Source: a virus (taxonomy: Duplodnaviria > Caudoviricetes). From it: 59,386 nucleotides of DNA. The stretch is from the IMG/VR virus record IMGVR_UViG_3300011335_000447, positions 1 to 59,386 of that record; one strand, 5' to 3'. The notes beneath the pieces are model-generated. The model saw only the letters and a list, made by a program, of their open reading frames with translations. It was not told the origin of the DNA and searched no databases. A program made the translations under genes and the position numbers. Shown in pieces: positions 5,682 to 54,362 of the stretch (positions are counted from its first letter, which is position 1; every line of letters starts with the position of its first letter).

Positions 5682-5689
5682 GAAATAAA

Positions 5690-17452: not shown

Positions 17453-17454
17453 AG

Positions 17455-26882: not shown

Positions 26883-27062
26883 ATGCGCCGCAAGATTAAG
26901 AAGACCATGGCCAACAACCCGCCAGAAGTGGCCGCGCTCAACAAAACGTTCAACGGCCCTCAGTTTAAGTTAGGCAGAAAACCCAAGCGCCGCGAATGGC
27001 CCGTTGACCCAGACCGGGACCGGAAGATTGCCGAGTTCCTGGCAAAGAAGGCAGAAAAATGA
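26883..27062 (+). CDS. 59-aa basic hypothetical protein
   Basis: ATGA overlap with next gene; KIAEFLAK. Confidence 0.55.
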   Translation: MRRKIKKTMANNPPEVAALNKTFNGPQFKLGRKPKRREWPVDPDRDRKIAEFLAKKAEK

Positions 27063-28195
27063 AATCTTGCACTCGCTGTCTGAACACCGAGACTGCCGAC
27101 ACCATCTCTTTCAACACGGCTGGTACTTGCAGCGTCTGCGTTCAAGTCGAGCATAAGTTGGATGTGGTTGATTGGGAGGAGCGTAAGATGGAATTACATT
27201 CCATCGTCACTCAAGCCCAACAGCGTGACGGCCAGTACGACTGCATCGTGCCGTTCTCTGGCGGCAAGGACTCGACCTACCAGCTTTGGTATGTGGTGAC
27301 GCAGTTGAAACTCCGGCCCTTAGTTGTGCGGTACAACCACTGGGGCAACCGCGCTGTGTTGGAGCGCAACAATGCTCGGACGTTTAAACGGCTTGGTGTT
27401 GAGGTAATTGACTTCAAGCCGAATTGGAAAGTTGTTCAGGCCACGATGTTGGAAGCACTTTCCCGCAAGGGTGACTCGTGCTGGCATTGTCACACGGGTG
27501 TCTACTCGTTTCCAATGCACATGGCGATTAAGTTCAACACGCCTTTAATTTTCTGGGGTGAGAGCCTGAAGGAGTACCAGTCCTGGCTTGACCCAACGGC
27601 TAAAGAGAATGTGGACGAGGTGCGGTTTAATCGTGCCATGAACCTTGGCATGACGGCTGATGATATGTGGGAGTTTCTTAAAGACGAGAACCCACACTTA
27701 GACCGGCGCGATTTGATTTGGCACACGTATCCCTCCAAGGCTGATTTGGATAAGCTGAATGTTCAAAGCATTTGCCTTGGTGACTATGTGAAGTGGGACA
27801 CCCGCAATCAAGTGGCCTTGATTAAAGAACACCTTGGCTGGGAGGGTGATGAGGTTGAGGGCATCCCACCTGAGTTTGATTACGAGAAGATCGAGTGTCA
27901 GTTCCAAGGCGTGCGCGATTGGCTTAAGTTCATCAAGCGCGGCTTTGGCAGAACCAACCATTTAGCCAACATTGAGATACGGCATGGGCGTATGGACCGC
28001 ATTGATGGGGCGCTATTGGCCGCACAATACGACGGTAAAGAGCCAGCCAGTCTTGGGTGGTTCCTTCAGACGGTTGGGATTACGCGAGATGAATTTTACA
28101 AGATTGCCTTGAACCATGTTGTTGATCCATGGGAATTTGACGCATCAGCCATTGTGGCTGGCTCAGAACTTCCAGACATGAAAGATTGGATATGA
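27059..28195 (+). CDS. N-acetyl sugar amidotransferase (WbuX/PseA/PtmG family)
   Basis: CTRC..CSVC, YDCIVPFSGGKDS PP-loop, FWGE, KFIKRGFGR, EIRHGRM.R. Confidence 0.9.
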   Translation: MKSCTRCLNTETADTISFNTAGTCSVCVQVEHKLDVVDWEERKMELHSIVTQAQQRDGQYDCIVPFSGGKDSTYQLWYVVTQLKLRPLVVRYNHWGNRAVLERNNARTFKRLGVEVIDFKPNWKVVQATMLEALSRKGDSCWHCHTGVYSFPMHMAIKFNTPLIFWGESLKEYQSWLDPTAKENVDEVRFNRAMNLGMTADDMWEFLKDENPHLDRRDLIWHTYPSKADLDKLNVQSICLGDYVKWDTRNQVALIKEHLGWEGDEVEGIPPEFDYEKIECQFQGVRDWLKFIKRGFGRTNHLANIEIRHGRMDRIDGALLAAQYDGKEPASLGWFLQTVGITRDEFYKIALNHVVDPWEFDASAIVAGSELPDMKDWI

Positions 28196-28734
28196 AAAAA
28201 CTATTGATAGCTGCTTCTGTGTTGGGGCTTGCGGCTCCCGCGCAAGCGACCACCATCCAGGTCTGCACAGGCGAGTTCGCTCTCTGCGCGGCCAGCCCGA
28301 CAACTCCTGTCGCCGGTCAGACCATCACCGTCAACGGTAAGGTGTTCTCTCTCGGCACCTCGGTTTGCCCCGTCCTTAAGGGACCGGCATTGGCCGATAT
28401 GGACCTGACGGGTGGCTCATGCGCCAACCCCGGTCCCGGTAAAGTCTGGAGCTTGTTCCAGCCCCGTGACAGCTACCCACAAGCGCCGACTTGGGCTGAT
28501 GCTCCGGCAGCGTTCCGTAAGTTCACGACGACGACAGCGGCTGGTGGCGGCATGTCTAACATGTTCAGCTTTCCCTGCACTGTCAGGCCAAACAAGATCA
28601 ACGGCACGAAGCTTGCCGATTGCTATGGCCCAATGAATGAAAGCCCAACTGGCGTTGCGGTACTTGCCGGTACTGAGGTAATGACGCAATCACCGGCTGG
28701 TGCGGCTGATCCTGTTGGTGGGCCAACGCCGTAG
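28192..28734 (+). CDS. Secreted Cys-containing protein
   Basis: Signal peptide MKKLLIAASVLGLAAPAQA; six Cys. Confidence 0.7.
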   Translation: MKKLLIAASVLGLAAPAQATTIQVCTGEFALCAASPTTPVAGQTITVNGKVFSLGTSVCPVLKGPALADMDLTGGSCANPGPGKVWSLFQPRDSYPQAPTWADAPAAFRKFTTTTAAGGGMSNMFSFPCTVRPNKINGTKLADCYGPMNESPTGVAVLAGTEVMTQSPAGAADPVGGPTP

Positions 28735-29387
28735 TGCTGAAACGCAGGATCATTGCGAAGTTCTTAATCGAGGACGGCAAGCTCGTTAAGTACAGACAGT
28801 TTACTTTTGACCGACGAACGGCTGGCAATCCGACAACAACTGCTAGGCTATACGAAGACTTGCGTGTTGATGAGATGTACTTCTGCGCTACAAACGTAAT
28901 TGACCCAGCCATGATACGGGCCGTGACATCTGAAGTGTTCACCCCCGTGACCGTGGCTGGGTCTATTCATTCCATGCGTCAAGTGGACGAACTGATTCAA
29001 GACAGCGGCGCAGATAAAGTAGTCGTTAAAGACGCTGATCTTGGGGAAAAAGTCGCTCAAAAATATGGTCGTCAGGCCGTGGTCTGGCCTATTGACTATC
29101 ACACTAAGTGTGTAGAAGATGTGCCCAGTTGCGCAGGTGAAGTTCTGTTAACGGACATTGACCGCGATGGAATTGGCAAGGGGTTTGACTTGGACGTATT
29201 GAAGCGCCAGTGGAATGTTCCGGTTGTGATTGCCGGTGGTTGCGGAAAATTAGATCACGCTTTGCAAGCGTTCAATGCTGGCGCTGACGGCGTTGCGATT
29301 TCATCCATGTTTTTCTTTACTGATAAATCACCAATCAAACTCAGAAGCTGGCTTGTAAGCGAAGGCGCAGCCGTGAGGACTACATGA
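28734..29387 (+). CDS. HisF-like cyclase subunit (WbuZ/AglZ type)
   Basis: MLKRRII, LVK..QF, GNP, DE, GADKV, IDRDG.GKGFD, AGGCG. Confidence 0.85.
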   Translation: MLKRRIIAKFLIEDGKLVKYRQFTFDRRTAGNPTTTARLYEDLRVDEMYFCATNVIDPAMIRAVTSEVFTPVTVAGSIHSMRQVDELIQDSGADKVVVKDADLGEKVAQKYGRQAVVWPIDYHTKCVEDVPSCAGEVLLTDIDRDGIGKGFDLDVLKRQWNVPVVIAGGCGKLDHALQAFNAGADGVAISSMFFFTDKSPIKLRSWLVSEGAAVRTT

Positions 29388-31951: not shown

Positions 31952-32289
31952 CCAACCCCACATACACCGCAGAGCAGATGCGTGATGCGCTGAGACACCA
32001 CTCATCAGCCATCGACCTCTCAGTTGTTGATAACATGCTCCGCCAAGGCGCGGGTGCGATGGAAGAAAACGCGGAACTAAAGAAGTTTATAGCGTCTGGA
32101 ACGGCGGTGATGCTGACAGATTGCAACTCAATTGTAATCACACTCAAAGAGCGCGTGAAGGTGCTGGAAGATGCGGTTAAGGACGCAATAGACCACATGA
32201 CTTCTGACGGCCATGAAGGCCAGATGAAAGATTGCTGGATGTGCCTACTCGTTGAACGCATGAACGCAGCCCTCAAGGAGACAAAATGA
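31948..32289 (+). CDS. Hypothetical coiled-coil protein
   Basis: ATGA-coupled. Confidence 0.6.
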   Translation: MTNPTYTAEQMRDALRHHSSAIDLSVVDNMLRQGAGAMEENAELKKFIASGTAVMLTDCNSIVITLKERVKVLEDAVKDAIDHMTSDGHEGQMKDCWMCLLVERMNAALKETK

Positions 32290-32810: not shown

Positions 32811-32953
32811 CCGTTACCCCTGCCAAGTTCATCTGTCTACGTGAACACCCTGAAAACGCACGATGGGGTTTGGGATGTGGGCGTGAGTGGACTGGAACTG
32901 CTAACTGAGGTTGTCCGTTTTGCAGCGCGTTTTATGTGAAGGAAATTAAATGA
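32807..32953 (+). pseudogene. Zn-ribbon mini-gene interrupted by in-frame TGA (32906-32908)
   Basis: C..CGREW..*GCPFC..YV; ATGA overlaps at both ends. Confidence 0.55.
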
Positions 32954-34035
32954 CTTTATGGCCGTATCATTCTGAAGATGAAATCAACGCCGTTGTTGAA
33001 GTGCTTCGCTCTGGTAAAACAAATTACTGGTCAGGTCCAAACGGGCAAGCGTTTGAATCAGAATTTGCTCAATTTACCGGAGCGAAGCATGCTATTTCTG
33101 TTACCAACGGCACGACCGCGTTAGAAGTTGCGCTTCATGCCATTCAAAACCCCAATGCGGAGGTTATTGTTCCGTGTCGAACGTTCATGGCAACTGCGAG
33201 TGCGGTTGTCACGGCTGGAATGGTCCCGGTTTTGGCGGATATTGACCCCCAAACGCTGAATGTGAACGTTGATTTGCTTGAAGATCGGCGCACACCCAAC
33301 ACTTTGGCTGTGATTGTGGTGCATTACGCGGGTTTGCCGTGTGATATGGAGTCGATTTGCGCTTGGGCCGAAAAACATTCGATCATAGTCCTTGAGGACT
33401 GCGCTCACGCGCATGGTTCTCGCATAAACGGCCAGCACGTTGGCACTTTTTGCTCGATTGGGTGCTTTTCGTTCTGCGTTGGCAAGATCATGTCCACTGG
33501 CGGCGAGGGTGGCATGGTTATTACGAACTATCCCGAGGTCCATAAGCGCATGGCGGCACGGCGCGATCACGGGCGCTATCAGATGATGGGTTCTAAGGAC
33601 ATGACCCAGTTCCAATGGACTGTTGAGGAGTATGGAACAAATCTGCGTATGACTGAAATGCAGTCTGCGATTGGCCGGTTGCAGCTACAGAAGTTGGACG
33701 GCTGGGTTCGTCGGCGCAATGCGATAGCCAATCGGTACAATTTGATTCTGGATGGGATTGATACGCCAAAGAACGTCACACACGGGCGTTACCTTTACAT
33801 GGCGACAATTGATGACCGTGATGCGCGTATGGCCCGTTTACAGGAAATGGGTATTGCTGCGCGGTTGGGTGGTTGTCCGAACATTGGGCATGAGGCGGTG
33901 TTTGGCGGCATGGCGGCGCATTGCCCAAATGCAGATGCCGTTGGCGAGCGGACTATTTCATTGCCGGTGTATCCGACAATGACGAATGATGAAGTCGAGA
34001 AGGTGTGTGACGCGGTGAAAATCGTATGCGCCTAG
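32950..34035 (+). CDS. DegT/DnrJ PLP-dependent sugar aminotransferase (PglE/LegC-like)
   Basis: NGTTAL, EDCAHAHG, SFCVGK, GEGGM, NLRMTEMQSAIG. Confidence 0.92.
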   Translation: MTLWPYHSEDEINAVVEVLRSGKTNYWSGPNGQAFESEFAQFTGAKHAISVTNGTTALEVALHAIQNPNAEVIVPCRTFMATASAVVTAGMVPVLADIDPQTLNVNVDLLEDRRTPNTLAVIVVHYAGLPCDMESICAWAEKHSIIVLEDCAHAHGSRINGQHVGTFCSIGCFSFCVGKIMSTGGEGGMVITNYPEVHKRMAARRDHGRYQMMGSKDMTQFQWTVEEYGTNLRMTEMQSAIGRLQLQKLDGWVRRRNAIANRYNLILDGIDTPKNVTHGRYLYMATIDDRDARMARLQEMGIAARLGGCPNIGHEAVFGGMAAHCPNADAVGERTISLPVYPTMTNDEVEKVCDAVKIVCA

Positions 34036-34496
34036 ACGACGAAATTGTTCACACCTACCGACAGTCCCGCAAGTGCTTTTTGGCTGGTGATTTGAAGGGC
34101 GCGGAGTATTGCTACCGTGAAAACAGGAGAGAGCATGGCATTGATTTATATTATGAGGTGGATTTGCCTCAACACCTTATGTTTGTTCACCCTGTTGGGA
34201 CTGTTCTTGGTCGAGGTGTTTATGGTGATTATCTTTGTGTTTACCAAAATGTTGGAGTTGGTTCTAACCTTGATGGGTCGCGTCCTACGCTCGGGCGCGG
34301 AGTTGTACTTTTCCCTGGATGCAAAATTCTGGGAGATACAAAGATTGGCAACAACGTATTTGTCCAAGCCAACACGGTAGTCCACAACAAGACGATCCCA
34401 TCGAACTCAATTGTCTACCCTAACAACGGCGGGTGTACTTACGATTTGACGACAAAAAATGTAATTAAAGAAATCTTTAAGGTGACTCATGGTTAA
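34026..34496 (+). CDS. Left-handed beta-helix acetyltransferase (serine acetyltransferase-like)
   Basis: HPVGTVLG, YQNVGVG, hexapeptide repeats. Confidence 0.75.
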   Translation: MRLDDEIVHTYRQSRKCFLAGDLKGAEYCYRENRREHGIDLYYEVDLPQHLMFVHPVGTVLGRGVYGDYLCVYQNVGVGSNLDGSRPTLGRGVVLFPGCKILGDTKIGNNVFVQANTVVHNKTIPSNSIVYPNNGGCTYDLTTKNVIKEIFKVTHG

Positions 34497-34641
34497 ACGT
34501 ACAAAAAAATTAAGAATTAACATTACTATTACGCCTGAATTATTAAAACGTATTGACGCTATTGTTACTTCTTACGAACGCAGTCGTTTTGTTAACGAAG
34601 CGTGTGTTGAAAAATTAAATAAAAGAAAAGAAATTAAATGA
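34489..34641 (+). CDS. Ribbon-helix-helix DNA-binding protein (not in ORF track)
   Basis: RINITITPELLKRID...RSRFVNEA. Confidence 0.7.
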   Translation: MVKRTKKLRINITITPELLKRIDAIVTSYERSRFVNEACVEKLNKRKEIK

Positions 34642-35345
34642 GCGTCCTCTATTTGATTACGGCTCGGGGCGGCTCAAAGGGCGTGCCGAAGAAGAACCTC
34701 CGCATGATTGGCGGATTGTCATTGGTGGGCTGGAAAGCCGAGGTCGCCAAGCAAGTTATTACACCGGAAGATGATCTGGTGATTTCGAGTGAATGTCCTG
34801 AGATTTTGAGGGAAGCGCGGGATCACGGGGTGTCTGTACCGTTTGTCAGACCTGATGCGTTGGCGACCGACACGGCTTCGTCTGCGGATGTGATTTCTCA
34901 CGCAATGGATTATTTGCAAGGTGACTACAATACGGTTGTGTTGTTGGAGCCGAGTGCACCGTTTACAACGCCCGAGCATTTGGTGACTGCGCTAACGATG
35001 AAAGATGCGAAGCAAGCGCACCTGATTGTTGGGATGAAGCACACCGAGCCGCACACGACCTTCATTGGCGAGCAGCCCGACGATGATTTTGTCACGCCAA
35101 TTATTGTGAAGATGGATCGTGTTGGCCGCAATTTGCGTCGGCAGGATTTAAAGCAAGAGTGGACGATGAACGGCGGGTTGTACGTTTTTGATGCGAGTAT
35201 GTTTAAACACAAGCGGTCCATTTACGGCGGAGCCAGGAACTACGGCTTGTTGATGGACCGTTGGCACAGCATTGAGATTGATTCGATGCACGATCTGGAA
35301 ATGGCTCAGTACGCTTTCAGCAAGGGATATGTGAGTTTACCATGA
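34638..35345 (+). CDS. neuA: CMP-nonulosonic acid synthetase (NeuA/LegF family)
   Basis: ARGGSKGVPKKN, FVRP..LATD, NGGLY, SIEIDS..D. Confidence 0.9.
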   Translation: MSVLYLITARGGSKGVPKKNLRMIGGLSLVGWKAEVAKQVITPEDDLVISSECPEILREARDHGVSVPFVRPDALATDTASSADVISHAMDYLQGDYNTVVLLEPSAPFTTPEHLVTALTMKDAKQAHLIVGMKHTEPHTTFIGEQPDDDFVTPIIVKMDRVGRNLRRQDLKQEWTMNGGLYVFDASMFKHKRSIYGGARNYGLLMDRWHSIEIDSMHDLEMAQYAFSKGYVSLP

Positions 35346-36046
35346 CGTTCATTATTTGTGAGGCGGGGATTAACCACTGCGGCTCTCTTGATCGCGCATT
35401 GAAGATGGTCGAAAGCGCGGCTGAATGTGGCGCTGATGCCGTTAAGTTCCAATCGTTCACCGCGACCGAGTTAGGGTACGAGCCGAAGTTGACGGAGTTC
35501 CTTCGGGGTGTGGAGTTGTCGAAGGACGATCATTTCAAGCTGAAGATGAAGGCCGACAAGTGCGGCATTGAGTTCATGTCCACGCCGTTTGATACGAAAT
35601 GGTGCGACTTCCTGGTTGATGAGATTGGCGTGAAGCGCATTAAGATTTCAAGCGGGAAGGTCAAAGACCGTCTGTTTGTTGAGCATGTGTTGGACTGTGG
35701 ACTTCCCGTGATTGCCAGTAACGGCATGGTTACTGCCAATATGTTTAATAGACATTTTCGTTATAGAGATAAATTTACAGCTTTGTATTGTGTGTCTGAG
35801 TATCCGACGCCGCTTTACATGTTAAATTTCGGAAACATTAAAAAATTAAGTAAAGATTTTCAGCGCGTCGGCTTTTCCGATCATACCGTTGGAATAGAGG
35901 CCAGCATTATTGCTGCTGCATCTGGCGCGTCTGTGATTGAGAAGCACTTTTCATTAGATAAGACGCTCCCCGGCCCCGACCACGTTTGCAGCCTGGAGCC
36001 TGACCAATTTAAAGAGATGGTCCGACAGATCAGGCTGGTGGCGTAA
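35342..36046 (+). CDS. neuB: Nonulosonic acid synthase (NeuB/LegI family), lacking C-terminal SAF domain
   Basis: EAGINHCG, GADAVKFQ, STPFD, KISSG, YPTP, GFSDHT, IEKHF, GPDH..SL.P. Confidence 0.9.
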   Translation: MTFIICEAGINHCGSLDRALKMVESAAECGADAVKFQSFTATELGYEPKLTEFLRGVELSKDDHFKLKMKADKCGIEFMSTPFDTKWCDFLVDEIGVKRIKISSGKVKDRLFVEHVLDCGLPVIASNGMVTANMFNRHFRYRDKFTALYCVSEYPTPLYMLNFGNIKKLSKDFQRVGFSDHTVGIEASIIAAASGASVIEKHFSLDKTLPGPDHVCSLEPDQFKEMVRQIRLVA

Positions 36047-37077
36047 TGTTGTCTGGGGGGACACGCAAGATTGAGGTGAAGGACTTGCTTTCTCGACGGT
36101 CTGTTGTTTCTGATTTGTCCCCGGTTCACAAACTGGTCAACCAACGGCGCGTGGTCATTACCGGCGCGGGTGGGTCAATTGGTTCTGAACTGGCCCGACA
36201 GGTCTACGCCCTTGACCCGCAATCTCTGACTTTGATCGACAACAGCGAGTACCACCTTTACGCCATAGGTACGGCATTGCCTCACACCAATCGTTTGTTG
36301 GGTGATGTGCGCGACACCAATCGGATTTACGAGATATTTAAGGCGCTCAAGCCGGAGGTTGTGTTTCACGCTGCTGCGTTGAAGCACGTTCCGATTGTGC
36401 AATCCAATCCGATTGAGGGGATTAAGACCAACGTATTTGGCACGCAGAATGTGGTTGATGCTGCGATTGTTGTGGAGGCTGAGACGTTGGTGATGGTATC
36501 GACTGACAAGGCAGTTAATCCGGTGAGCGTGATGGGGGCGACGAAGCGCGTTGCCGAGATGTACGTTCGGGCCGCTGGGTACAGCGTTGTGCGGTTTGGG
36601 AATGTGTTGGGTTCTTCCGGCTCGGTGGTTCCATTGTTTGAGGCGCAGATCGCCAAGGGTGGGCCGATCACGCTGACCGACGAGGACGTTGAGCGTTATT
36701 TCATGACGATTGATGAGGCGGTTGAGTTGGTGTTGTTGGCCGCTACGGGCCAGCGAGCAACGTATGTGTTGGACATGGGCGAGCCGGTGAATGTTGGGGC
36801 ACTGGCTCGCGACATGATCCGGTTGGCGGGGAAGATGCCCGACAGTGAGATTAAGGTTGAGTTGACGGGTTTGCGCCCAGGTGAGCGGCTTCACGAGGAG
36901 TTGTTTTACTCCAAGGAGACGGTGAAGCCGTCTGGCATGGGCGGGATATTGTTGGCTGATTCGGTGGTTCATTCCAACGTGGGGTCTGCGATTGGCCGGT
37001 TGGAGGAGTTGGTTCGGATCGGATTGGTCGAGGAATCATTGGCTGTTTTATGGAGGTCTGTCCGTGTCGGGTCGTAA
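36046..37077 (+). CDS. UDP-GlcNAc 4,6-dehydratase catalytic domain (PglF/CapD/WbpM family)
   Basis: TGAGGSIGSEL, HAAALKHVP, STDKAVNP, RFGNVLGSSGSV, GLRPGERLHEEL. Confidence 0.92.
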   Translation: MLSGGTRKIEVKDLLSRRSVVSDLSPVHKLVNQRRVVITGAGGSIGSELARQVYALDPQSLTLIDNSEYHLYAIGTALPHTNRLLGDVRDTNRIYEIFKALKPEVVFHAAALKHVPIVQSNPIEGIKTNVFGTQNVVDAAIVVEAETLVMVSTDKAVNPVSVMGATKRVAEMYVRAAGYSVVRFGNVLGSSGSVVPLFEAQIAKGGPITLTDEDVERYFMTIDEAVELVLLAATGQRATYVLDMGEPVNVGALARDMIRLAGKMPDSEIKVELTGLRPGERLHEELFYSKETVKPSGMGGILLADSVVHSNVGSAIGRLEELVRIGLVEESLAVLWRSVRVGS

Positions 37078-37681
37078 GGTTTTAATAACGGGAAGTGAGG
37101 GGCATCTTGGCCGTGCGCTGCGTGCGGCGTTCACCGCGCAGGGGGATTTTGTTCTTGGAATGGACTTGCCTGGGATCGGGGTTGATCTTGAGTGCGATTT
37201 AGATAACGACCCTATCGAAAACCTCATATGGGACATTCGCTACCTCAAGCCTGAGATTGTTATTTGCAATGCAAAAGTGCGGAAGTGGGAGGCTCATCAC
37301 GCGCTTGCTAAGTGTGCCACCCAAGCAATCGTCAACATTGGCTCGATCTACGGAGTATTAGGAAGTGACCCGTCGCTCTACGAAGGTACGGAAGTCGAGC
37401 CAACTCCAGCGTGGTACGCGGCCAGCAAGGGCGCACTCATTGCGCTCACCAAATGGCAAGCAACCAACTTCGCTCCTGTTCGTTCCAACGCTGTTTGTCC
37501 AGGTGGAATTTTTAGAGGACACTCTGAAGAATTTAACAAACGCTATTCTAAAAGGGTTCCTCTCGGGCGCATGGCAACCGAGGACGATATTGTAGGGCCG
37601 GTGCTGTTTCTGTGTTCCGACGCGGCGCGTTACATCACTGGCCAAGTGCTGATGGTCGATGGAGGATATTCGTCGTGGTAG
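37064..37681 (+). CDS. SDR oxidoreductase (PtmA-like)
   Basis: TGSEGHLG, SIYG, YAASK, PGGI, VPLGRMA, GQVLMVDGG; SD ggagg. Confidence 0.85.
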   Translation: MSGRKVLITGSEGHLGRALRAAFTAQGDFVLGMDLPGIGVDLECDLDNDPIENLIWDIRYLKPEIVICNAKVRKWEAHHALAKCATQAIVNIGSIYGVLGSDPSLYEGTEVEPTPAWYAASKGALIALTKWQATNFAPVRSNAVCPGGIFRGHSEEFNKRYSKRVPLGRMATEDDIVGPVLFLCSDAARYITGQVLMVDGGYSSW

Positions 37682-38247
37682 ACATTGCTATTATAGGAAA
37701 TGGATCGCACGCCAAGATGATTGGTAATTTGTTTTTGTCTGGTACAAAAACTTACGCACGACTTGTTTATTCAGATAAAATTGTTTGTCTTAATGTAAAA
37801 AAAATAATTGTTGGCATTGGTAATAGACCAACACTCAAAGATTCGGATTTGTTTAAAAGAAAAAAAACATTTAATTTAAACAACGTTGCGTGTCTCAAAG
37901 TAAAATCAAAAAACGCTATTATCTTAGGAAAAATATTTAACGCCGTTCAAGTCATGCCGGGGGCTGTTATTAATTACGGAGCGTTGGTGCGAGAGAACAC
38001 CATCATCAACACCGCTGCGGTTGTCGAGCATGATTGCGATGTTGGCGCACATTGCCACATTGCGCCCAACGCTACGCTGTGCGGCGGGGTGAAGGTTGGC
38101 GAACTGACGCACATTGGCGCGGGGTCTGTTGTGCTTCAGGGAATTACGATTGGATCGGGCTGCGTTGTTGGCGCTGGCTCGGTCGTGACCAAAGACATGC
38201 CTGACAACACCACATGGATAGGGACGAAGTTCCATGACCGAGTTTAA
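37675..38247 (+). CDS. Sugar N/O-acetyltransferase (PglD/NeuD/LegH family)
   Basis: IGNGSHAK, VGIGN, IINTAAVVEHDC, hexapeptide repeats. Confidence 0.88.
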   Translation: MVDIAIIGNGSHAKMIGNLFLSGTKTYARLVYSDKIVCLNVKKIIVGIGNRPTLKDSDLFKRKKTFNLNNVACLKVKSKNAIILGKIFNAVQVMPGAVINYGALVRENTIINTAAVVEHDCDVGAHCHIAPNATLCGGVKVGELTHIGAGSVVLQGITIGSGCVVGAGSVVTKDMPDNTTWIGTKFHDRV

Positions 38248-39193
38248 CCGCGTAACCGTTGTCAGTAATTCTCGCGCCGAAGACGGGCCGTTAGAATCTG
38301 TAATTAAAGTTATGCCTGGATGTTCTGTAACACGGTTTATTTCAGATGGCATGTCTCCAGCCGTTGCGATTGCCCAAGCAATTATTTACTTCACTGTTGC
38401 GTTTGAAACACAAAAGCCAAAACTTGTTGTTTTGTTAGGAGACAGGTATGAAACGCTTGCGGCTGCGCTGGCGTCTATGTTCTCGGCTATACCCATTGCC
38501 CACATTGGTGGCGGAGAAACCACTATTGGAGCATTTGATGACGCCATGCGTCATAGCATCAGTCATATGGCATCGCTTCATTTTGTGGCTGCAAATGAGT
38601 TTGCCGCTAAGTTAATAAACATGGGTATTGAACCAAATAACATTTTTACAAGCGGAGCTTCAGGATTAGACGGCGTTGAAGGCAATAGCGCCAAACGTGA
38701 TAAAAACGAAATATTAGTTACGTATCATTCAGAAACACGATTACCAGATTACGGCATTAATAATTTTAAAAAAGCTCTTTTAATTTTAGATAAATATTAC
38801 AAAGACGGTTACAACATTATTTTTTGCGGCGTAAATAACGACCCTGGCTCAGAAGAAATTAACAAAATAATTAAAGATTATTGTGATCTACGTTCATGCG
38901 CCAACATTTCTCCAAGCATGAATCACAGTGATTATGTGAAGAAAATGCAGCACGCTTCTCTTGTTGTTGGCAACTCTTCTGCTGGCGTAATTGAAGCTCC
39001 TTGGGTTGGAGTTCCCAGCATTAACATTGGAGATCGTCAAAAAGGACGCCCATTGGCTAGTTCTGTTTACAAATCTATTAATCAAATTGAAGCTGCTTTA
39101 AAACACAAAGAAGATTGGAATCCGTTTTATAAAAACGGTGCTGCTCCTAGAATTGCTTCTAGAATTAAACATTGGCTTAACAATGAAAAATAA
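38234..39193 (+). CDS. neuC: Hydrolysing UDP-sugar 2-epimerase (NeuC/LegG family)
   Basis: SRAE, LGDRYE, HIGGGE, DDAMRHSIS, GNSSAG..EAP, NIGDRQKGR. Confidence 0.9.
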   Translation: MTEFNRVTVVSNSRAEDGPLESVIKVMPGCSVTRFISDGMSPAVAIAQAIIYFTVAFETQKPKLVVLLGDRYETLAAALASMFSAIPIAHIGGGETTIGAFDDAMRHSISHMASLHFVAANEFAAKLINMGIEPNNIFTSGASGLDGVEGNSAKRDKNEILVTYHSETRLPDYGINNFKKALLILDKYYKDGYNIIFCGVNNDPGSEEINKIIKDYCDLRSCANISPSMNHSDYVKKMQHASLVVGNSSAGVIEAPWVGVPSINIGDRQKGRPLASSVYKSINQIEAALKHKEDWNPFYKNGAAPRIASRIKHWLNNEK

Positions 39194-50061: not shown

Positions 50062-50967
50062 ATGACTATTAATACCAGTTCAATCCAACAACTTCTCCGC
50101 CCAGGTTTGGCGGAAGTTTTTGGTGATTATCCAATGTATCCTGCTGAATACACGGAAATCTTTACCACCCAAACTTCAGATAAAGCAGTTGAAATCGAAG
50201 TTGAAATGAAACTGCTTGGCCTCGCCTCGATCAAAGGTGAAGGAGCGCCAACGCAGTTCCAAGACATGGGACAGCGCGTTATCTCGACCTACTACCACCG
50301 CTACACTAGCGTTGGTTTCATCATCACCCGTCAGGCGATGAAGGACAATCTGTATGAGTCGCAGTTCCCACTTCAAGCGCAGTCTCTCCGTAATTCAATG
50401 CTGCAAAGCAAAGAAGTCAACGGCGCGTCAGTCTTGAACAACGGCTTCTCTTCCTCGTTCCCCGGTGGCGATGGTCAGCCTCTCTTCTCGACCGCGCACC
50501 CGATTGATACTGGCACGTTCGCCAACACGCCAAGCGTGCAGGTGGACTTGAACGAATCGTCGCTGCAAGACGCTATCGTAACTATCTCGCAGTTCCGCGA
50601 TCAAGCTGGCCTCATCACGATGACGAAGCCAACCAAACTGATTGTTCCGCCGCAGCTTCAGTTCACGGCTGACCGTATCCTGCATTCTCAATTCCGCACG
50701 GGTACTGCCAACAACGACATCAATGCAATCTACAACATTGGTGCCGTGCCACAGGGCTATCGCGTCAACCACTTCTTGACCGATACCAATGGCTGGTTCC
50801 TCATGACTGACGCACCCAATGGTTTGAAACATTACGTTCGTGAAGCTTTGGAAACTGACGTTTTCACTGATTTTACCAGTGACAATTTGTTAGCCAAAGC
50901 TATCGAGCGTTATTCGTTCGGTTGGTCTAATCCGCGTGGTTCGTTTGGCAGCTCGGGCGCTACCTAA
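50062..50967 (+). CDS. Major capsid protein
   Basis: LRPGL, K.EG, DNLY, KE..GA.VLN, DGQPLFS.AHP, KLIVPP.L, ERYSFGWS.PRG. Confidence 0.9.
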   Translation: MTINTSSIQQLLRPGLAEVFGDYPMYPAEYTEIFTTQTSDKAVEIEVEMKLLGLASIKGEGAPTQFQDMGQRVISTYYHRYTSVGFIITRQAMKDNLYESQFPLQAQSLRNSMLQSKEVNGASVLNNGFSSSFPGGDGQPLFSTAHPIDTGTFANTPSVQVDLNESSLQDAIVTISQFRDQAGLITMTKPTKLIVPPQLQFTADRILHSQFRTGTANNDINAIYNIGAVPQGYRVNHFLTDTNGWFLMTDAPNGLKHYVREALETDVFTDFTSDNLLAKAIERYSFGWSNPRGSFGSSGAT

Positions 50968-51054: not shown

Positions 51055-51810
51055 ATGACAACTTTCTTTGATAGCATCAAAATGGGGCGTGCGGTTTATA
51101 ACCGCAATTCCGTCCCTTCTACTGGGTATATGGAGGACGAAATTTATGGCGTCCCGCTGACTCAGACTTACGTTTACCAAGTGGGTACAGCGTCCACTTC
51201 TTTGGCCAGCGGCGTGTTCTATGCGTCGTCTGCCATTGCGGGTACGTTGACCGGCACGGGCGCTTTGGTCAGCAGCGGCGTTGCTACCTTTGACGTTCCG
51301 CGTTGCGTGTCCATTACGGCTTCCAGCAATATGTCAACGACGACATTTACCTTTCAAGGTACGGATGCGTATGGTGCGCCACTTACTGCGTCTGTGCTTG
51401 GCCCGACCGGCAATACCTTCGGCAATTCTGGTTCTGTTGTTAATACGCTTTCGGCCTTTAAGACCGTCACCACCGCATCTGCGAATGGCGCGGCCACTGG
51501 CCTGTTGGCGATTGGTAACTCGGATACCTACGGCTTGCCTTATCGCCTTTCTAACGTTGGCGAAGCTCTTGGGGCTTATATTAACGGTGGAACGGCGTCG
51601 ATTGCTCCGACTTACACCGCTGGTTTGGCTGCTACGGGCGTTGCTACTGCGACCACCGCTGATGTTCGTGGAACGGTTGCACTGGCTACGGCTGTTCTGG
51701 CCAACGGCTCCAGGTACGTCACCTTCCAGTTTATCACCCCGAACGATGGGACTTTGGCTGGCAGCGATACCAAAGAAAATACGTATGGCGTAACGCCATA
51801 TTCTGGTTAA
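51055..51810 (+). CDS. T/S/A/G-rich virion protein (decoration-like)
   Basis: DVPR.V, GTD.YG, AFKTV, D..GLP, DVRGT. Confidence 0.7.
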   Translation: MTTFFDSIKMGRAVYNRNSVPSTGYMEDEIYGVPLTQTYVYQVGTASTSLASGVFYASSAIAGTLTGTGALVSSGVATFDVPRCVSITASSNMSTTTFTFQGTDAYGAPLTASVLGPTGNTFGNSGSVVNTLSAFKTVTTASANGAATGLLAIGNSDTYGLPYRLSNVGEALGAYINGGTASIAPTYTAGLAATGVATATTADVRGTVALATAVLANGSRYVTFQFITPNDGTLAGSDTKENTYGVTPYSG

Positions 51811-51818: not shown

Positions 51819-51853
51819 CGCCGGGGTGTGGCCGTCATGCCCCGGCGTTTATT
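51819..51853 (+). terminator. Intrinsic terminator
   Basis: cgccgggg/ccccggcg then tttatt. Confidence 0.7.
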
Positions 51854-51884: not shown

Positions 51885-52799
51885 GTGACAGAATCTCATT
51901 TAGCTCAAGCAGCACCTACAGCGATCATGCACGCCCCGACTCGTAAGGCGGTCAACATTATTGCTATGGGTTCAAGCCGTTCCGACTTCTTCCAGGCGCA
52001 GCTTATGGAAACGCGCCCTGAAATCCTGCAAAACGCGGAAACGTGGTGCATTAACTATATGGGCGCACAAATTCGTTGCGATCGTATTATTCACGTTGAC
52101 CCCGTTCACCCCTATTTGGGCCACCCCGTTGTCCGTGATATGTGCGAATACGCGCTGAAGGACAACACCCCGTTCTATACGTCGTGGCCGCACCCGCGTT
52201 ATCCCAACCATGTCGTTTACCCGTTTGCTCGGGTTATGGCTTCGTTTGGCGGAATCACCTATTACAACACCAGCGTTTCGTATGCTATCGCGCTGGCTTT
52301 GGCCGATGGGTTTAACGAAATCGGCCTGTTTGGGTGCGATTTCTCATATCCTGATGTGCATTTAGCTGAATCTGGCCGTGCGTGTTGCGAGTTCTACATG
52401 GGTATTGGTACTCAGCGCGGTGTTCGTTTTGCCGTTGCCCAGAACTCAACACTGATGGATATGTACAACCGCCAGCAGCCCTATGGCTGGTTTGTTGACC
52501 CCAACCATCCCCCTGGCATGGGTGGAAAAATAATGACTGCTCAACAGATTTTAGCTCATGAAGAGCGCATTAAGAATCCGCCTAAACTAGCTGCTCAGTT
52601 TCAAGTAATACAAGTGGCTAGCCCTTCAGTTATTCAGCCAATTGCGGCTCCGCAGCCAGCTATGGGTGTTGGCGGAGAACATGCTATGTATGATGCTATG
52701 TTGGGAGGGCCACTCCCATTAAGAAATGGCCATGACCCTTCTTCTATTGGAGTAGCAAATGCGCCCAGTAATATTCAGTTTCCCCACACAAACGGTTAA
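51885..52799 (+). CDS. Putative nonulosonyl/sialyltransferase-like protein (Maf/DUF115, Cst-II GT42, GT29-like fold)
   Basis: VNIIAMGSS, WCIN, HVD, NTSVSYAIALALADGFNEIGLFGCDFSY. Confidence 0.65.
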   Translation: MTESHLAQAAPTAIMHAPTRKAVNIIAMGSSRSDFFQAQLMETRPEILQNAETWCINYMGAQIRCDRIIHVDPVHPYLGHPVVRDMCEYALKDNTPFYTSWPHPRYPNHVVYPFARVMASFGGITYYNTSVSYAIALALADGFNEIGLFGCDFSYPDVHLAESGRACCEFYMGIGTQRGVRFAVAQNSTLMDMYNRQQPYGWFVDPNHPPGMGGKIMTAQQILAHEERIKNPPKLAAQFQVIQVASPSVIQPIAAPQPAMGVGGEHAMYDAMLGGPLPLRNGHDPSSIGVANAPSNIQFPHTNG

Positions 52800-53409
52800 C
52801 AGCGTTTGTGCTACGCAGACGACTACGGCCACAGATCAGCTTCTTGTTCTTAATGGATCGTTGTCTAATTTTAACGCTGGTGTAACGCCTTTTGCGGTGA
52901 CTGTAGCGCCCGGTATTCAGCGGTCGATTACGCTTACATCAACGGGAAACATTAGCTCATCGACCTTTACAATTTCGGGTATTGATACGTCTGGGTATGC
53001 TGTATCTACAACGCTTACTGGGCCAAACAATGCTACGGCCACGACTGTGGCTGAATTCTTCAAAGTCACAGCAATCTCAGTTGGGACTATTGCAACCACA
53101 GCTTTCACGGCTGGTGTCGGAATTACCGGCACCAGTCGCTGGGCTGTTGTTGATACTTTCCAGAACCCAGTGGTTGTGACGGTAGCAATCAATACGGCCA
53201 CAAGTGCGCCGGTTTCTATCCAGCACACTTTTGACCCGATTTCTACGTCCACAAGCCCAATGATAATCGCAGCTACTGGGTTGACGAGTATTACAACTTC
53301 TACAAACCTTAGCTACTCCGAAAACGCCACGGCTTATCGTGCCATCTTTATTGCAACCGGCACGGCAACTGGCGCGGCTCAAGTCAATATTATCCAATCG
53401 GGGTACTAA
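52759..53409 (+). CDS. Thr/Ser-rich virion protein
   Basis: Beta-rich, FTISG.D..G, GPN, IQSG end. Confidence 0.7.
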   Translation: MRPVIFSFPTQTVNSVCATQTTTATDQLLVLNGSLSNFNAGVTPFAVTVAPGIQRSITLTSTGNISSSTFTISGIDTSGYAVSTTLTGPNNATATTVAEFFKVTAISVGTIATTAFTAGVGITGTSRWAVVDTFQNPVVVTVAINTATSAPVSIQHTFDPISTSTSPMIIAATGLTSITTSTNLSYSENATAYRAIFIATGTATGAAQVNIIQSGY

Positions 53410-53669: not shown

Positions 53670-54362
53670 ATGACGCTTACCGGCACATATGATTTTGGCG
53701 TTAATACCGAGCTTGATAGCGTAATCGTTGAGGCTTACGAACGTATGGGCCGTGAGGCTTCAGACTTGTCGGCCAATGACGTACAGAGTGCTATTCGTAG
53801 CCTTAGCTATCTGTGTGCAGAATGGGCTAATAAGGGTGTTAACCTTTGGGAAGTCACGCTTAACAGTTCAGCCCTGACTTTGGGCCAGACAAGCCTAACG
53901 CTGAACTCGAAGAACGTGGAAATGTTCCAAGTCTACCGGCGCACCACCAGCGGCGGGATTAACACGGACATTATGCTCTCGCCCATCAGTAGGGCGGATT
54001 ATGCGTCTATCCCCAACAAACAGCAGCAAGCCCCACCGACTCAGTACTACTTTGAGCGCACCATTACGCCGACAGTGTACTTTTGGCCTACGCCAGACCT
54101 ATCAACCTATACGTTGTTTTATTACACCATGAACTTCACGCAAGACCCAGGGAACCCAACTAATACCCTGGATGTTCCCCAGCGTTGGTTTGATGCTATG
54201 GCAGCGGGTATGGCTGCACGTTTAGCGGTGAAATGGGCACCTGAGAAGGCTAGTCTGCTGCAAGGGCTGGCAGAGATAGCCTACCAAGCCGCTGCTGCTG
54301 AAGACCGCGAAAAGGTGCCTACGGTCATTAAACCCAGCATGTTGTATGGCAGGTGGGCATGA
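53670..54362 (+). CDS. Head-tail adaptor protein
   Basis: EAYER.G, RSL, EWANKGVNLW, ISR.DY..IPNK, PTQY, WPTPD. Confidence 0.75.
   Translation: MTLTGTYDFGVNTELDSVIVEAYERMGREASDLSANDVQSAIRSLSYLCAEWANKGVNLWEVTLNSSALTLGQTSLTLNSKNVEMFQVYRRTTSGGINTDIMLSPISRADYASIPNKQQQAPPTQYYFERTITPTVYFWPTPDLSTYTLFYYTMNFTQDPGNPTNTLDVPQRWFDAMAAGMAARLAVKWAPEKASLLQGLAEIAYQAAAAEDREKVPTVIKPSMLYGRWA

Follow-up and report, generated by a model that had tools for sequence, protein, structure and literature searches.

The window analysed here is the whole 59,386-nt stretch of a record of a lake-water tailed phage from IMG/VR (IMGVR_UViG_3300011335_000447). Its head module contains, between two Ser/Thr-rich genes (A and B) that follow the major capsid gene, a gene whose product is referred to below as the transferase (Table 1). 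An AAGGA Shine-Dalgarno-like site lies 7 nt 5' of its start codon, and its translation contains the motifs IIAMGSS, WCIN, HVD and TSVSYAIALALADGFNEIGLFGCDFSY in the order in which the initial annotation of this DNA had quoted them. The protein has 104 homologues with identities of 36-94%, and an alignment of 42 family members has 33 invariant columns, so that 51885..52799 is not a chance ORF. The catalytic-type core comprises residues ~19-235. It is followed by a C-terminal tail that is variable and modelled with low confidence but closes with a conserved end peptide, NGHD...AP...QxP. Over relatives of 22-95% identity, 20 columns are invariant; they are concentrated in nucleotide-binding-type loops and include G29, S31, D72, G150, D152-P156, E162 and G164.

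Table 1. Features of the window that bear on the transferase gene
Feature	Coordinates	Strand	Basis or remark
N-acetyl sugar amidotransferase (WbuX family), for acetamidino group	27059..28195	+	321 bits, cut-off 203
HisF-like WbuZ/AglZ-type subunit, acetamidino modification	28734..29387	+	below equivalog cut-offs
DegT-family (PseC/LegC-like) sugar aminotransferase	32950..34035	+	family-level match
Hexapeptide-repeat acetyltransferase	34026..34496	+	family-level match
CMP-nonulosonate synthetase (CTP_transf_3, PseF-like)	34638..35345	+	family-level match
NeuB-family nonulosonate synthase, 234 aa, NeuB domain only	35342..36046	+	family-level match
UDP-GlcNAc 4,6-dehydratase (Polysacc_synt_2, PseB/LegB-like)	36046..37077	+	family-level match
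NeuD/PglD-type sugar N-acetyltransferase	37612..38247	+	family-level match
NeuC-type (hydrolysing) UDP-sugar 2-epimerase	38234..39193	+	240.1 bits, cut-off 235.9
Major capsid protein (Mu gpT-like / Phage_capsid_4)	50062..50967	+	Pfam
Protein A, 251 aa, Ser/Thr-rich, all-beta, jelly-roll-like in model	51055..51810	+	directly 3' of capsid gene
Terminator-like hairpin, 13-bp stem, 9 G-C pairs, then TTTATTATT	51819..51847	+	between gene A and transferase gene
Putative Maf/Cst-II-like transferase gene, GTG start, 304 aa	51885..52799	+	ORF list, homologues, model, profile alignment
Protein B, 216 aa, highest Ser+Thr of window ORFs	52759..53409	+	start overlaps transferase gene end by 41 nt

The surroundings of the gene are much as they had first been described, with Ser/Thr-rich flanks, a capsid gene shortly upstream and a sugar cluster about 13 kb away. 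The Ser+Thr content is 26.3% in protein A and 31.5% in protein B, where the 63 tabulated ORFs average 14.3% (sd 5.7) and A ranks third among them and B first, and the sugar cluster ends (39193, NeuC-type gene) 12.7 kb 5' of the transferase gene. Protein B is a distant paralogue of A, with 17-22% identity and a central domain in common. The order capsid gene, A, transferase, B is kept in 30 loci of the lineage (L001-L030) as far as the contigs reach, and a further locus (L035) has the capsid gene, an A-like ORF and the transferase gene in this order. Identity to a complete relative (G004) is 65% for the transferase, 64% for the capsid protein, 39% for A and 31% for B. A hairpin of other sequence is found at the equivalent position in 9 of 11 relatives, followed in 6-7 of them by a T-rich run; judged from the sequence, the hairpin of the window is probably an attenuator through which the enzyme is expressed at a lower level than the capsid protein and A. 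Contigs from three lake-water RNA libraries (X1, X2 and X4) span the junction of gene A, hairpin and transferase gene, and contigs from three (X1-X3) lie inside the gene; DNA carry-over is possible in these libraries, contig depth cannot rank the genes, and uncovered stretches (e.g. beyond 53.8 kb) carry no meaning.

The model of protein A has a pLDDT of 66.6, and its best folds are weak matches to STIV A223 (Z 6.2) and the BPP-1 cement protein (3j4u_H, Z 5.2). BFVD returned only unnamed phage proteins for it, and a sequence search of the PDB gave no meaningful match. A complex prediction of the enzyme with protein A, run without controls, scored 0.00. Protein A is possibly a capsid decoration or cement protein and the leading candidate acceptor, with protein B as the second candidate.

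Searches of PHROGs and NCBIfam with the transferase were empty, and the family to which it belongs has no Pfam, PHROG or NCBIfam name. Against Pfam PF01973 the protein scored 14.9 bits (E 0.024), below the gathering threshold of 34.6, in a match that covers only the last 45 profile positions. When the whole genome was searched with PF01973, the transferase gene was the sole match (16.2 bits), and sub-threshold matches to this profile occur in 29 of the 42 family members, with a best E of 0.001. No match was obtained at E <= 10 to PF06002 (GT42) or to PF20157, the N-terminal domain of Mafs. A Pfam SLT_2 match (E 0.53) was rejected as chance, as were the phmmer matches among PDB sequences (e.g. 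SltB3, E 0.23). Residues ~194-245 are weakly similar, in two short stretches, to the phage capsid chains 8frs_B (E 0.0099) and 9b40_A (E 0.015).

The AF2 model of the transferase has a pLDDT of 76.5 and a core above 85, and its loop 155-163, which holds the invariant residues Y155, P156 and E162, falls below 50. It was compared with PDB chains, one from each 40%-identity cluster, of which 48,161 were aligned. The best four matches were MptE (8sd5, Z 10.0), SteA (9hmy, Z 9.8), Maf (5mu5_A, Z 9.8, rmsd 3.7 over 165 residues) and Cst-I (2p56_A, Z 9.0 over 158 residues); the next had a Z of 6.8, and thiamin pyrophosphokinases were found at Z 5.3-6.8. In Foldseek, Cst-II entries came top (E 3.6e-5, probability 1.00) and MptE ranked 15th, the Cst matches having E values of 3.6e-5 to 1e-3 and TM-scores of 0.35-0.46. 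The predicted structure has the sialyltransferase-like / Maf / DUF115 fold and resembles CMP-sugar transferases, in line with the resemblance to Cst-II and Maf that had been proposed for the gene. The nucleotide-binding-domain fold is one that the transferase shares with GT42 sialyltransferases, among them Cst-I and Cst-II from Campylobacter jejuni and an enzyme from Pasteurella multocida, whose acceptors are lipooligosaccharide sugars and not proteins.

The same fold is also that of MptE, the archaeal 6-hydroxymethyl-7,8-dihydropterin pyrophosphokinase, and of SteA and thiamin pyrophosphokinase. Because the highest Z belongs to a kinase, MptE, level with SteA, the fold alone cannot separate a transferase from a pyrophosphokinase. 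The protein might therefore be no glycosyltransferase at all, but an MptE/TPK/SteA-like nucleotide-dependent pyrophosphokinase or a nucleotide-binding head assembly factor; its sole family-type Pfam match, PF01973, bears the MptE name, and the frequent fusions to a methyltransferase indicate that the family domain is able to act beside small-molecule chemistry.

The sequence-level signals favour Maf and GT42. The profile of the phage family (A2) aligned in hhalign with a profile of eight genuine Mafs (A4) with a probability of 95.7% and an E of 9.7e-9 over 152 columns, covering residues 17-174 of the window protein. These Mafs score 51-117 bits on PF01973 and are 428-912 aa long, and one of their genes lies between flagellin genes; since they were chosen through the phage-family motif and tblastn, they are the Mafs nearest to the phage family. 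Their profile matches the solved Maf 5mu5 with an E of 7.5e-21. The motif LFG(A/C)DFSYP is common to the phage family and to Mafs of Aeromonas and spirochaetes, and of the 11 columns invariant among the Mafs within the aligned stretch, the window protein has the same residue in 7 (hand count): G29, D66, D72, V131, A134, G150 and D152. In a profile search of the PDB, 8 of 9 weak matches, each located on the TS...GxDF segment, were to GT42 sialyltransferases (Cst-II, Cst-I and that of P. multocida), with E values of 0.47-1.6 (Cst-II 0.47-0.50) that are not significant alone. The segment YxN..TS..Y..A.A...G..EI.L.G.DF of the transferase aligns with Cst-II residues 121-155, a segment with CMP-binding residues, and D152-F153 stand opposite D154-F155. 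The catalytic residue of Cst-II is His188, and Tyr156 and Tyr162 bind phosphate. At the profile level, then, the transferase is homologous to genuine Mafs. A pyrophosphokinase would also stand in a window in which Pfam scans found no pterin, folate or thiamin genes, it is outranked in Foldseek by Cst-II, and it would leave the co-occurrence with NeuB and cytidylyltransferase genes unaccounted for; we consider such a function quite unlikely.

The window contains the legionaminic-type sugar cluster that the initial annotation had recognized. All six functions of such a pathway (dehydratase, aminotransferase, N-acetyltransferase, NeuC, NeuB and CMP-synthetase) were found at 32950-39193, with WbuX in addition. 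The NeuC-type epimerase step marks pathways of the legionaminic or neuraminic type and not of the pseudaminic type. As only NeuC and WbuX pass curated cut-offs and the other matches are at family level, we infer, between legionaminic acid, pseudaminic acid and other isomers, that the cluster specifies a legionaminic-type, acetamidino nonulosonate. The window and two 100%-complete relatives have neither GT2 (PF00535) nor GT1 (PF00534), and in a Pfam scan of 59 ORFs the sole match to a glycosyltransferase family was a weak one to Glyco_transf_9 (E 5.3e-5) inside the NeuC-type epimerase. By these profile searches, no transferase candidate other than this gene is recognisable in the three genomes.

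Co-occurrence of the gene's family with NeuB, which had been suggested as a check, was found across viral records. A family member is present in 21 of 77 NeuB-bearing IMG/VR records and in none of 67 random ones (Fisher p 4.6e-7), where the records are not independent (e.g. G020/G021 and G072/G074) and the random ones are smaller on average. Among records of at least 17 kb the counts are 17/63 and 0/32 (p 4.8e-4), and of the NeuB-bearing records that are at least 90% complete, 7 of 14 have the family. The 56 of 77 NeuB-bearing records without a family member include many fragments. In 10 loci 0.1-4.2 kb separate the family gene from NeuB, and in another (L161) ~9.4 kb. NeuB homologues are rare among GenBank phage records (3 of 50,697). 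In a quick tree of 58 rows with long branches, from which 10 near-duplicate loci and envelopes of <150 aa or <40 bits had been left out, the NeuB-linked members are spread over at least three separate clades; with 12 of the 58 rows labelled, statistics on the labels carry no information.

The gene had been taken for the missing transferase of the sugar pathway. Its standing as sole candidate and the enrichment of its family in NeuB-bearing records speak for this role in the window; for the family as a whole the claim is too narrow. The complete relative with 65% identity (G004) keeps the gene and has no NeuB, cytidylyltransferase or any sugar gene, and another complete phage (G006) has the gene and neither NeuB nor cytidylyltransferase. 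The donor of the family is therefore not always a phage-made nonulosonate. It could even be that the enzyme glycosylates the virion with a host metabolite such as CMP-Kdo throughout, the phage cluster serving some other end. Gram-negative bacteria make CMP-Kdo, and strong matches were found in 36 bacterial records (L062-L097) whose names are those of Gram-negative groups. NeuB is missing in 2 of 5 prophage hosts; its presence in the other 3, compared with 9 of 14 control genomes, means that host NeuB does not discriminate. Two Mafs expressed in E. coli used Neu5Ac or Kdo (PMC7591256). A host donor throughout is nevertheless improbable in view of the strong enrichment of the family in NeuB-bearing viral records, and it would leave the costly 10-gene pathway with no other transferase candidate in the window and the two complete relatives. 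Host donors are compatible with a virion-directed ulosonate transferase if an ancestor used Kdo and individual lineages later switched to a donor made by the phage.

The post-capsid position of the gene extends well beyond this lineage. Of the 36 loci in which a capsid gene could be detected, 32 have the start of the family domain within 1.3 kb 3' of it. In unrelated phages and prophages of the HK97 type, the domain begins 413-1299 nt beyond the capsid gene and in the same orientation (27 of 31 genomic and 5 of 5 viral loci, with confirmation by Pfam); a conserved protein of ~140 aa encoded 5' of the family gene in these phages has no sequence match in the PDB. A genuine ulosonate transferase might instead act on the host surface (LPS, capsule, flagellin or pilin), where it could hide receptors or prevent superinfection, and its place in the head operon would then reflect late timing. 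Bacterial nonulosonate clusters usually feed LPS, capsule and flagellin, and in 10 NeuB-bearing viral loci the family gene stands beside NeuB and not near a capsid gene; in the genomes G040 and G090 its distance to the capsid gene is 13.5 kb and 7 kb, respectively. Phage-encoded enzymes reported to alter the pseudaminic acid of Acinetobacter capsules provide a precedent (PMC12053666). However, the post-capsid position is kept over unrelated head modules and many phyla, so that late timing alone is no explanation. The transferase is also conserved as strongly as the capsid protein, and its overlap with B and the fixed flanks of A/B paralogues suggest a functional unit, which makes a host-surface target unlikely.

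A location among structural genes would also suit a head component of structural or scaffolding function that has lost catalysis and kept only the fold. The disordered C-terminal tail with its conserved end peptide and the faint likeness of residues ~194-245 to the phage capsid chains named above fit such a role, but 20 invariant columns concentrated in nucleotide-binding-type loops, and a putative upstream attenuator that argues for low, enzyme-like expression, make it very improbable.

We therefore suggest, with a probability of about 0.5, that the gene encodes a CMP-ulosonate protein O-glycosyltransferase that acts on head proteins, a proposal in which we infer the catalysis, both donor and acceptor, and the consequences for the biology. 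The enzyme would be a reduced relative, specific to phages, of the Mafs that glycosylate flagellin. It would be made late from the head operon, at a level below that of the capsid protein and A because of the terminator-like hairpin just 5' of its gene. In the cytoplasm of the infected cell it would bind a CMP-activated ulosonic acid, in the phage of the window most likely a legionaminic-type acetamidino nonulosonate from its own cluster at 27-39 kb, and, either ahead of assembly or in its course, would attach this sugar to hydroxyl groups of Ser/Thr in a protein of the head surface. Among the likely acceptors the abundant, jelly-roll-like A would come first, followed by its paralogue B or the capsid protein itself, and the outcome would be a virion coat of acidic, host-like sugar. 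More tentatively, a head cassette of capsid gene, small beta-rich protein and Maf-like transferase, with or without a methyltransferase, may coat the capsids of thousands of phages and prophages of diderm bacteria with acidic ulosonic sugars; the donor would by default be host CMP-Kdo, and in several lineages a legionaminic- or pseudaminic-type sugar made by the phage.

To our knowledge, glycosylation of phage-particle proteins is documented for only a few phages, and there with ordinary glycosyltransferases. The mycobacteriophages of Freeman et al. 2023 reportedly rely on GT-A/GT2-type enzymes, methyltransferases and ordinary sugars and infect a Gram-positive-type host. In mycobacteriophages, phage-encoded enzymes glycosylate capsid and tail-tube subunits and their genes lie beside structural genes (PMC12619734). 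These systems are of the GT2 type, whereas the phage of the window has a Maf-like enzyme and its own nonulosonate pathway and lacks GT2 and GT1. Chloroviruses and giant viruses reportedly encode both sugar synthesis and transferases for their own capsids, as proposed here (PMC5408694, PMC9614988). However, their hosts are eukaryotic and their transferases belong to other families, whereas the system of the window belongs to a tailed bacterial phage. A literature search of incomplete coverage retrieved no paper on a phage Maf-like enzyme or on a phage nonulosonate made for its own virion.

Maf enzymes O-glycosylate Ser/Thr residues of flagellin (PMC7591256). The transferase resembles them in its homologous central domain, its association with nonulosonate synthesis and the Ser/Thr-rich candidate acceptors encoded next to it. 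It differs in being about half their size (304 versus 428-912 aa), with neither the Maf N-terminal domain (PF20157) nor the long C-terminal domain. Its gene lies in a head module, and Pfam scans found no flagellar genes in the window. Members of the phage family are, in addition, often fused to a SAM methyltransferase and also occur in genomes without a nonulosonate pathway.

If our reading is correct, it gives a name to a common dark-matter gene of phage head modules and explains why some phages carry costly pathways for sialic-acid-like sugars. A host-like, sialic-acid-like coat on the capsid might alter how stable the particles are, how they aggregate, are grazed and adsorb to mucus or cell surfaces, and how hosts or immune systems recognise them. 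Small Ser/Thr O-ulosonyl transferases might be used in glycoengineering, and glycan-coated capsids in work on phage stability or immune evasion.

The transferase gene is not special to the phage of the window but one member of a very large head-module family, which comprises 3,982 clusters (50% identity) at E<=1e-3, most of them viral. A search of the ESM Atlas returned only unnamed viral clusters. Matches in BFVD were mostly called uncharacterized protein, a few bearing automatic MptE-like, DUF115 or methyltransferase names. In tblastn searches of the 50,697 GenBank phage records, neither the window protein nor a distant member (L044) had a match. A member fused to a SAM methyltransferase (L038), a frequent architecture in the family, had one true match in the same records, in the isolated Microcystis phage Mvi-Yong1342-1, where the homologue is labelled 'type 11 methyltransferase'. 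Family members are also present in prophages of culturable lysogens (Mesorhizobium alhagi CCNWXJ12-2, Variovorax sp. WS11, Rhodoplanes elegans DSM 11907 and Pseudolabrys sp. Root1462).

The open reading frame that the initial annotation had singled out as a sialyltransferase- or Maf-like gene in the capsid operon is real, and every motif quoted for it was found in the translation in the order given. The start codon is preceded, at 7 nt, by an AAGGA ribosome-binding site, and the virus record (59,386 bp) is estimated by CheckV to be 79% complete. The surroundings also agree with what had been claimed: the capsid gene is near, the flanking ORFs A and B are both Ser/Thr-rich (26.3% and 31.5% Ser+Thr, genome mean 14.3%, sd 5.7), and the sugar cluster, which ends at 39193, lies 12.7 kb upstream. 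A and B are distant paralogues with a common central domain (17-22% identity in their alignment; blastp E 3.7e-4), and B starts 41 nt before the transferase stop codon.

Coordinates of the features discussed, in the window and in related records
Record	Feature	Position	Strand	Remarks
Window	SU10-type adaptor gene, copy 1	688-1350
Window	182-aa ORF	28186-28734
Window	HNH-type endonuclease	29891-30295
Window	PAPS-reductase-like protein	30513-31376
Window	'ferredoxin' PHROG match	32286-32810
Window	NeuB synthase	35342-36046		234 aa
Window	Large terminase	40534-43140		868 aa
Window	Major capsid gene	50062..50967		Mu gpT-like / Phage_capsid_4
Window	ORF A	51055..51810		251 aa
Window	Hairpin	51819-51847		13 bp
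Window	Transferase gene	51885..52799	+	304 aa, GTG start
Window	Transferase residues ~194-245	52465-52620
Window	Transferase tail	52700-52796		variable, disordered
Window	ORF B	52759..53409		216 aa
Window	SU10-type adaptor gene, copy 2	53670-54362
Window	Fibre-like protein	54754-56928		724 aa
L018	Copy of 182-aa ORF	5177-5722
L020	Copy of 182-aa ORF	4371-4916
L021	Copy of 182-aa ORF	6944-7225
L038	~140-aa ORF	4913-5335
L064	~140-aa ORF	6873-7307
L066	~140-aa ORF	6777-7184
L068	~140-aa ORF	5553-5978
G064	HK97 capsid gene	29796-30635
G064	Family gene	32208-32648
G070	Capsid gene	17430-17975
G070	Family gene	19050-19790
G067	Three tandem family copies	36227-38906		193-205 aa
L034	Anp1-like domain protein	5510-6265
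L070	Portal gene	2747-4519

The AF2 model of the transferase protein had a mean pLDDT of 76.5 and a pTM of 0.67; its core (residues 19-150, 170-190 and 200-230) was mostly above pLDDT 85, and confidence was poor in the loop 155-163 and, beyond about residue 235, in the tail. When it was aligned with 48,161 PDB chains, one per 40%-identity cluster, four matches were well separated from the rest: MptE HPPK (8sd5; Z 10.0, 138 residues), SteA (9hmy; Z 9.8), Maf (5mu5; Z 9.8, 165 residues) and Cst-I (2p56; Z 9.0, 158 residues). Thiamin pyrophosphokinases (Z 5.3-6.8) and eukaryotic GT29 sialyltransferases (Z 5.0-6.5) followed lower down. Foldseek placed Cst-II entries at the top (E 3.6e-5, TM 0.35-0.45) and MptE at rank 15. 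The Z scores and Foldseek ranks therefore put the protein in the sialyltransferase-like/DUF115 fold group, and the likeness to Cst-II and Maf foreseen by the initial annotation was recovered in the predicted structure. In such a model, a transferase is indistinguishable from a pyrophosphokinase by fold alone; we consider it quite unlikely that the protein is a pyrophosphokinase or a nucleotide-binding assembly factor.

Sequence profiles relate the protein to Maf. Motifs of the phage family itself, run over prokaryotes with a single genome for each species, gave strong matches in many bacterial genomes and weak ones in spirochaetes and Aeromonas lacus. The weak-match group consists of genuine Mafs, with 51-117 bits to PF01973 (MptE-like, the Pfam family that holds Maf proteins), the Maf N-terminal domain in two of them, and flagellin, FliD and FlgI genes flanking the Aeromonas gene. 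A profile of eight Mafs, which matched the solved Maf 5mu5 at E 7.5e-21, was aligned by hhalign with the 49-sequence profile of the phage family at 95.7% probability (E 9.7e-9; 152 columns, window residues 17-174); because the eight were found through their resemblance to the phage family, they are its nearest Mafs and no random sample. A hand count on this alignment found 7 of the 11 Maf-invariant columns in the aligned region to be the same in the window protein (G29, D66, D72, V131, A134, G150, D152), and the motif LFG(A/C)DFSYP is common to the phage family and Mafs. Against the PDB, eight of the nine weak matches of the family profile were GT42 enzymes (Cst-II, Cst-I and the P. multocida enzyme; E 0.47-1.6), all on YFN..TS..Y..A.A...G..EI.L.G.DF. 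This stretch aligns with Cst-II residues 121-155, a part of that enzyme bearing CMP-contacting residues. The protein is a Maf-superfamily domain in which the nucleotide-binding-type loops are conserved, and a catalytically dead structural protein seems very improbable. It is homologous to Maf and would act like one. It falls short of the curated Maf family on three counts: the Pfam threshold, the accessory domains and the flagellar setting. We would class it as a new family, specific to phages, inside the Maf/GT42/DUF115 superfamily.

Two further features of the protein were observed. Residues ~194-245 are weakly similar, in the family profile, to the phage major capsid chains 8frs_B and 9b40_A (E 0.0099 and 0.015; two short stretches with one common motif, YGF..DP.LP). 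The tail terminates in a peptide, NGHD...(A/H)AP...(Q/L)xP, that is kept in many homologues and may be a docking or targeting signal.

The only Pfam match of the protein, to PF01973, scored 14.9 bits where the cut-off is 34.6; PHROGs and NCBIfam gave none, nor did tblastn against 50,697 GenBank phage records. Its close homologues number 104 (36-94% identity, E<=0.001) and are, without exception, unnamed or 'hypothetical'; they lie on contigs of up to 67 kb. An alignment of 42 sequences had 33 invariant columns, and 20 remained in the 49-sequence profile, to which distant viral members had been added. Among 1.84 billion representatives this profile matched 3,982 clusters at E<=1e-3, 2,175 at E<=1e-10 and 378 at E<=1e-30. 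Neighbours in the ESM Atlas were unnamed and viral in 91-100%, and those in BFVD were mostly 'uncharacterized protein [uncultured Caudovirales phage]', a few with automatic MptE-like or DUF115 names. Among 41 longer proteins (341-706 aa) picked from the 150 representatives listed, 23 carry a class-I SAM methyltransferase domain, N-terminal in 21 and C-terminal in 2; in prophage L068 the methyltransferase is a separate gene immediately 5' of the family gene. The fused enzymes could possibly methylate the sugar or the acceptor. The member in complete phage L034 is also a methyltransferase fusion; this phage further encodes an Anp1-like (mannosyltransferase-type) domain protein in its structural module, directly before the adaptor gene. 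The complete 48.7-kb, NeuB-bearing phage G067 (record of L180) has three short family copies in tandem.

The order capsid gene, A, transferase gene, B is kept in 30 viral loci of the lineage (L001-L030), as far as the contigs reach; in L035 a single ORF matching both A and B lies between the capsid and family genes. Identity to the complete relative G004 is 65% for the transferase, 64% for the capsid protein, 39% for A and 31% for B. Between A and the transferase gene lies a G+C-rich hairpin followed by TTTATTATT. A hairpin of other sequence occupies the same site in 9 of 11 relatives examined, with a T-rich run after it in 6-7, an arrangement that would fit a high output of capsid protein and A, with attenuated read-through into the transferase gene. 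In X1, X2 and X4, three of the four RNA libraries from lake water, contigs run from A over the hairpin into the transferase gene, with DNA carry-over possible; one from X3 stops 3 nt into the transferase gene, and contigs from X1-X3, libraries that may contain DNA, fall within it.

The survey beyond the lineage used two profiles made from Pfam-confirmed capsid ORFs, which six loci match by construction because the profiles were built from them. A same-strand capsid gene lies upstream in 31 of 36 bacterial-genome loci. The family domain starts 413-1299 nt past its end in 27 of these and 3.0-5.7 kb past it in the other four, and in four of the five loci where no capsid gene was detected the family gene is at a contig edge. 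Five of 16 distant viral loci yielded a capsid gene, each time with the domain starting 472-1095 nt downstream. The Pfam-confirmed order portal, protease, HK97 capsid, (small ORF), family gene, head-tail connector was seen in Rhodoplanes, Variovorax, Mesorhizobium, Pseudolabrys and Desulfuromonadales prophages and in viral contig L038. The position of the family behind the capsid gene is fixed, also in unrelated phages. That the enzyme acts on the host surface is unlikely in our estimation. At four unrelated loci the HK97-type capsid gene is separated from the family gene by a conserved ORF of about 140 aa (37-52% identical, 16-23% Ser+Thr, motif TSVADAD..GTE), which had no match among PDB sequences. 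By name, each of the 36 strong-match bacterial records (L062-L097) belongs to a Gram-negative group (Pseudomonadota, Bacteroidota, Planctomycetota, Desulfuromonadales, Cyanobacteriota or Acidobacteriota), and in this pattern-limited scan no Bacillota or Actinomycetota name was among them.

The sugar cluster encodes a WbuX amidotransferase (321 bits, over cut-off), a WbuZ/HisF-like protein, a PseC/LegC-like aminotransferase, two acetyltransferases, a PseF-like cytidylyltransferase, NeuB synthase and a PseB/LegB-like dehydratase, and a NeuC-type hydrolysing epimerase (240.1 bits, over cut-off) completes the set. By the logic of such pathways, the product suggested by the NeuC step together with the amidotransferase is a legionaminic-type acid that bears an acetamidino group. 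Pfam scans of the 59 window ORFs found no glycosyltransferase family except a weak Glyco_transf_9 match (E 5.3e-5) within the NeuC-type epimerase. Neither GT2 (PF00535) nor GT1 (PF00534) was found in the window or in two 100%-complete relatives, and in all of these genomes the transferase gene is the sole PF01973-like signal. The NeuB synthase covers positions 1-254 of the 329 in the NCBIfam model; since only the NeuB domain is covered, it is without the usual C-terminal domain. The cluster is interrupted by three genes, HNH-type, PAPS-reductase-like and a 'ferredoxin' match. Between the WbuX and WbuZ-like genes lies a 182-aa ORF without a family in Pfam or PHROGs (E<=0.001) or NCBIfam (E<=1e-5). 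Copies 77-79% identical to it directly follow B in the head module of three relatives, and thus a sugar-cluster gene has moved beside the transferase block.

NeuB is present in the window and three lineage relatives (G001-G003). It also occurs in G007, the record of an unrelated phage that has direct terminal repeats (CheckV 71%) and also encodes a cytidylyltransferase and a methyltransferase; the family member there is only 31% identical. In the reverse direction, the best 80 of 271 IMG/VR stretches with a NeuB relative were taken and 77 searched, next to 67 random records drawn by an arbitrary 14-mer. A family hit (E<=0.001) was found in 21/77 NeuB-bearing and 0/67 random records, in 7/14 and 0/9 at >=90% completeness, and in 17/63 and 0/32 at >=17 kb (Fisher's exact p 4.6e-7 for all records, which are non-independent, and 4.8e-4 at >=17 kb; p 9.5e-5 with only the 14/77 hits of >=45 bits). 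The other 56 NeuB-bearing records, many of them fragments, have no family member. Within 10 kb either side of NeuB a family hit occurs in 11 of the 80 loci, ten of them at 0.1-4.2 kb, and six further loci have a Maf-profile hit. The family gene follows the capsid gene in NeuB-bearing G064 and G070 (see table); the two genes are 13.5 kb apart in G040 and 7 kb apart in G090. Only 3 of 50,697 GenBank phage records have a NeuB homologue, one of them labelled Moritella viscosa. A quick, provisional tree with long branches has NeuB-linked members in at least three separately supported parts and pathway-less G004 just outside the window's subclade. The association of the family with CMP-nonulosonate synthesis is non-random. 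Complete G004 and G006 keep the gene without NeuB or a CTP_transf_3 cytidylyltransferase, and a Pfam scan of the 99 ORFs of G004 found no sugar gene whatever. We consider it improbable that the donor is host-derived in the window phage too and its sugar cluster serves another purpose.

Two Mafs have been reported to O-glycosylate flagellin Ser/Thr with Neu5Ac or Kdo in E. coli (PMC7591256). We infer that the phage enzyme would move a CMP-activated ulosonic acid onto Ser/Thr of a head protein from the same operon. As donor, the window phage would draw on the legionaminic-type sugar that it makes itself, and pathway-less phages on one from the host. CMP-Kdo is an attractive default donor because all 36 strong-match bacterial records are Gram-negative by name, NeuB is missing in 2 of 5 prophage hosts, and Mafs are able to use Kdo. 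Among the candidate acceptors protein A comes first, being abundant by operon logic, Ser/Thr-rich and all-beta in its model (pLDDT 66.6). It may be a decoration or cement protein; the best matches of this model are STIV A223 (Z 6.2) and the BPP-1 cement protein (Z 5.2). The proposal in the initial annotation that a phage-made nonulosonate decorates the virion is partly supported, by the Maf-like domain, the capsid linkage and the NeuB association; activity, donor and acceptor are putative. The fibre-like protein, with 31% Ser/Thr and about five tandem repeats of ~95 aa marked by GTVTSVDVSGG.TG...GGTSATTAIAAF...IYRTSTGNVRL, is a possible further glycosylation target.

Virion glycosylation is known in mycobacteriophages (PMC12619734) and giant viruses (PMC5408694, PMC9614988). 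The enzymes there belong to families other than the Maf-like one described here. Neither a phage Maf-like enzyme nor a nonulosonate on a phage particle was found described in the full-text literature searched, from which most subscription journals are missing.

In the large terminase of the window, an intein (Pfam Intein_splicing, residues 191-512) separates the ATPase part from the nuclease part; the matches of the 511-aa G004 terminase include no intein family. The window has two paralogous SU10-type adaptor genes, a duplication also present in G004 and in the Trichodesmium MAG locus L091. The portal protein of the Mesorhizobium prophage L070 has a C-terminal Acb1 (anti-CBASS) domain (residues 435-583, E 1.3e-39).
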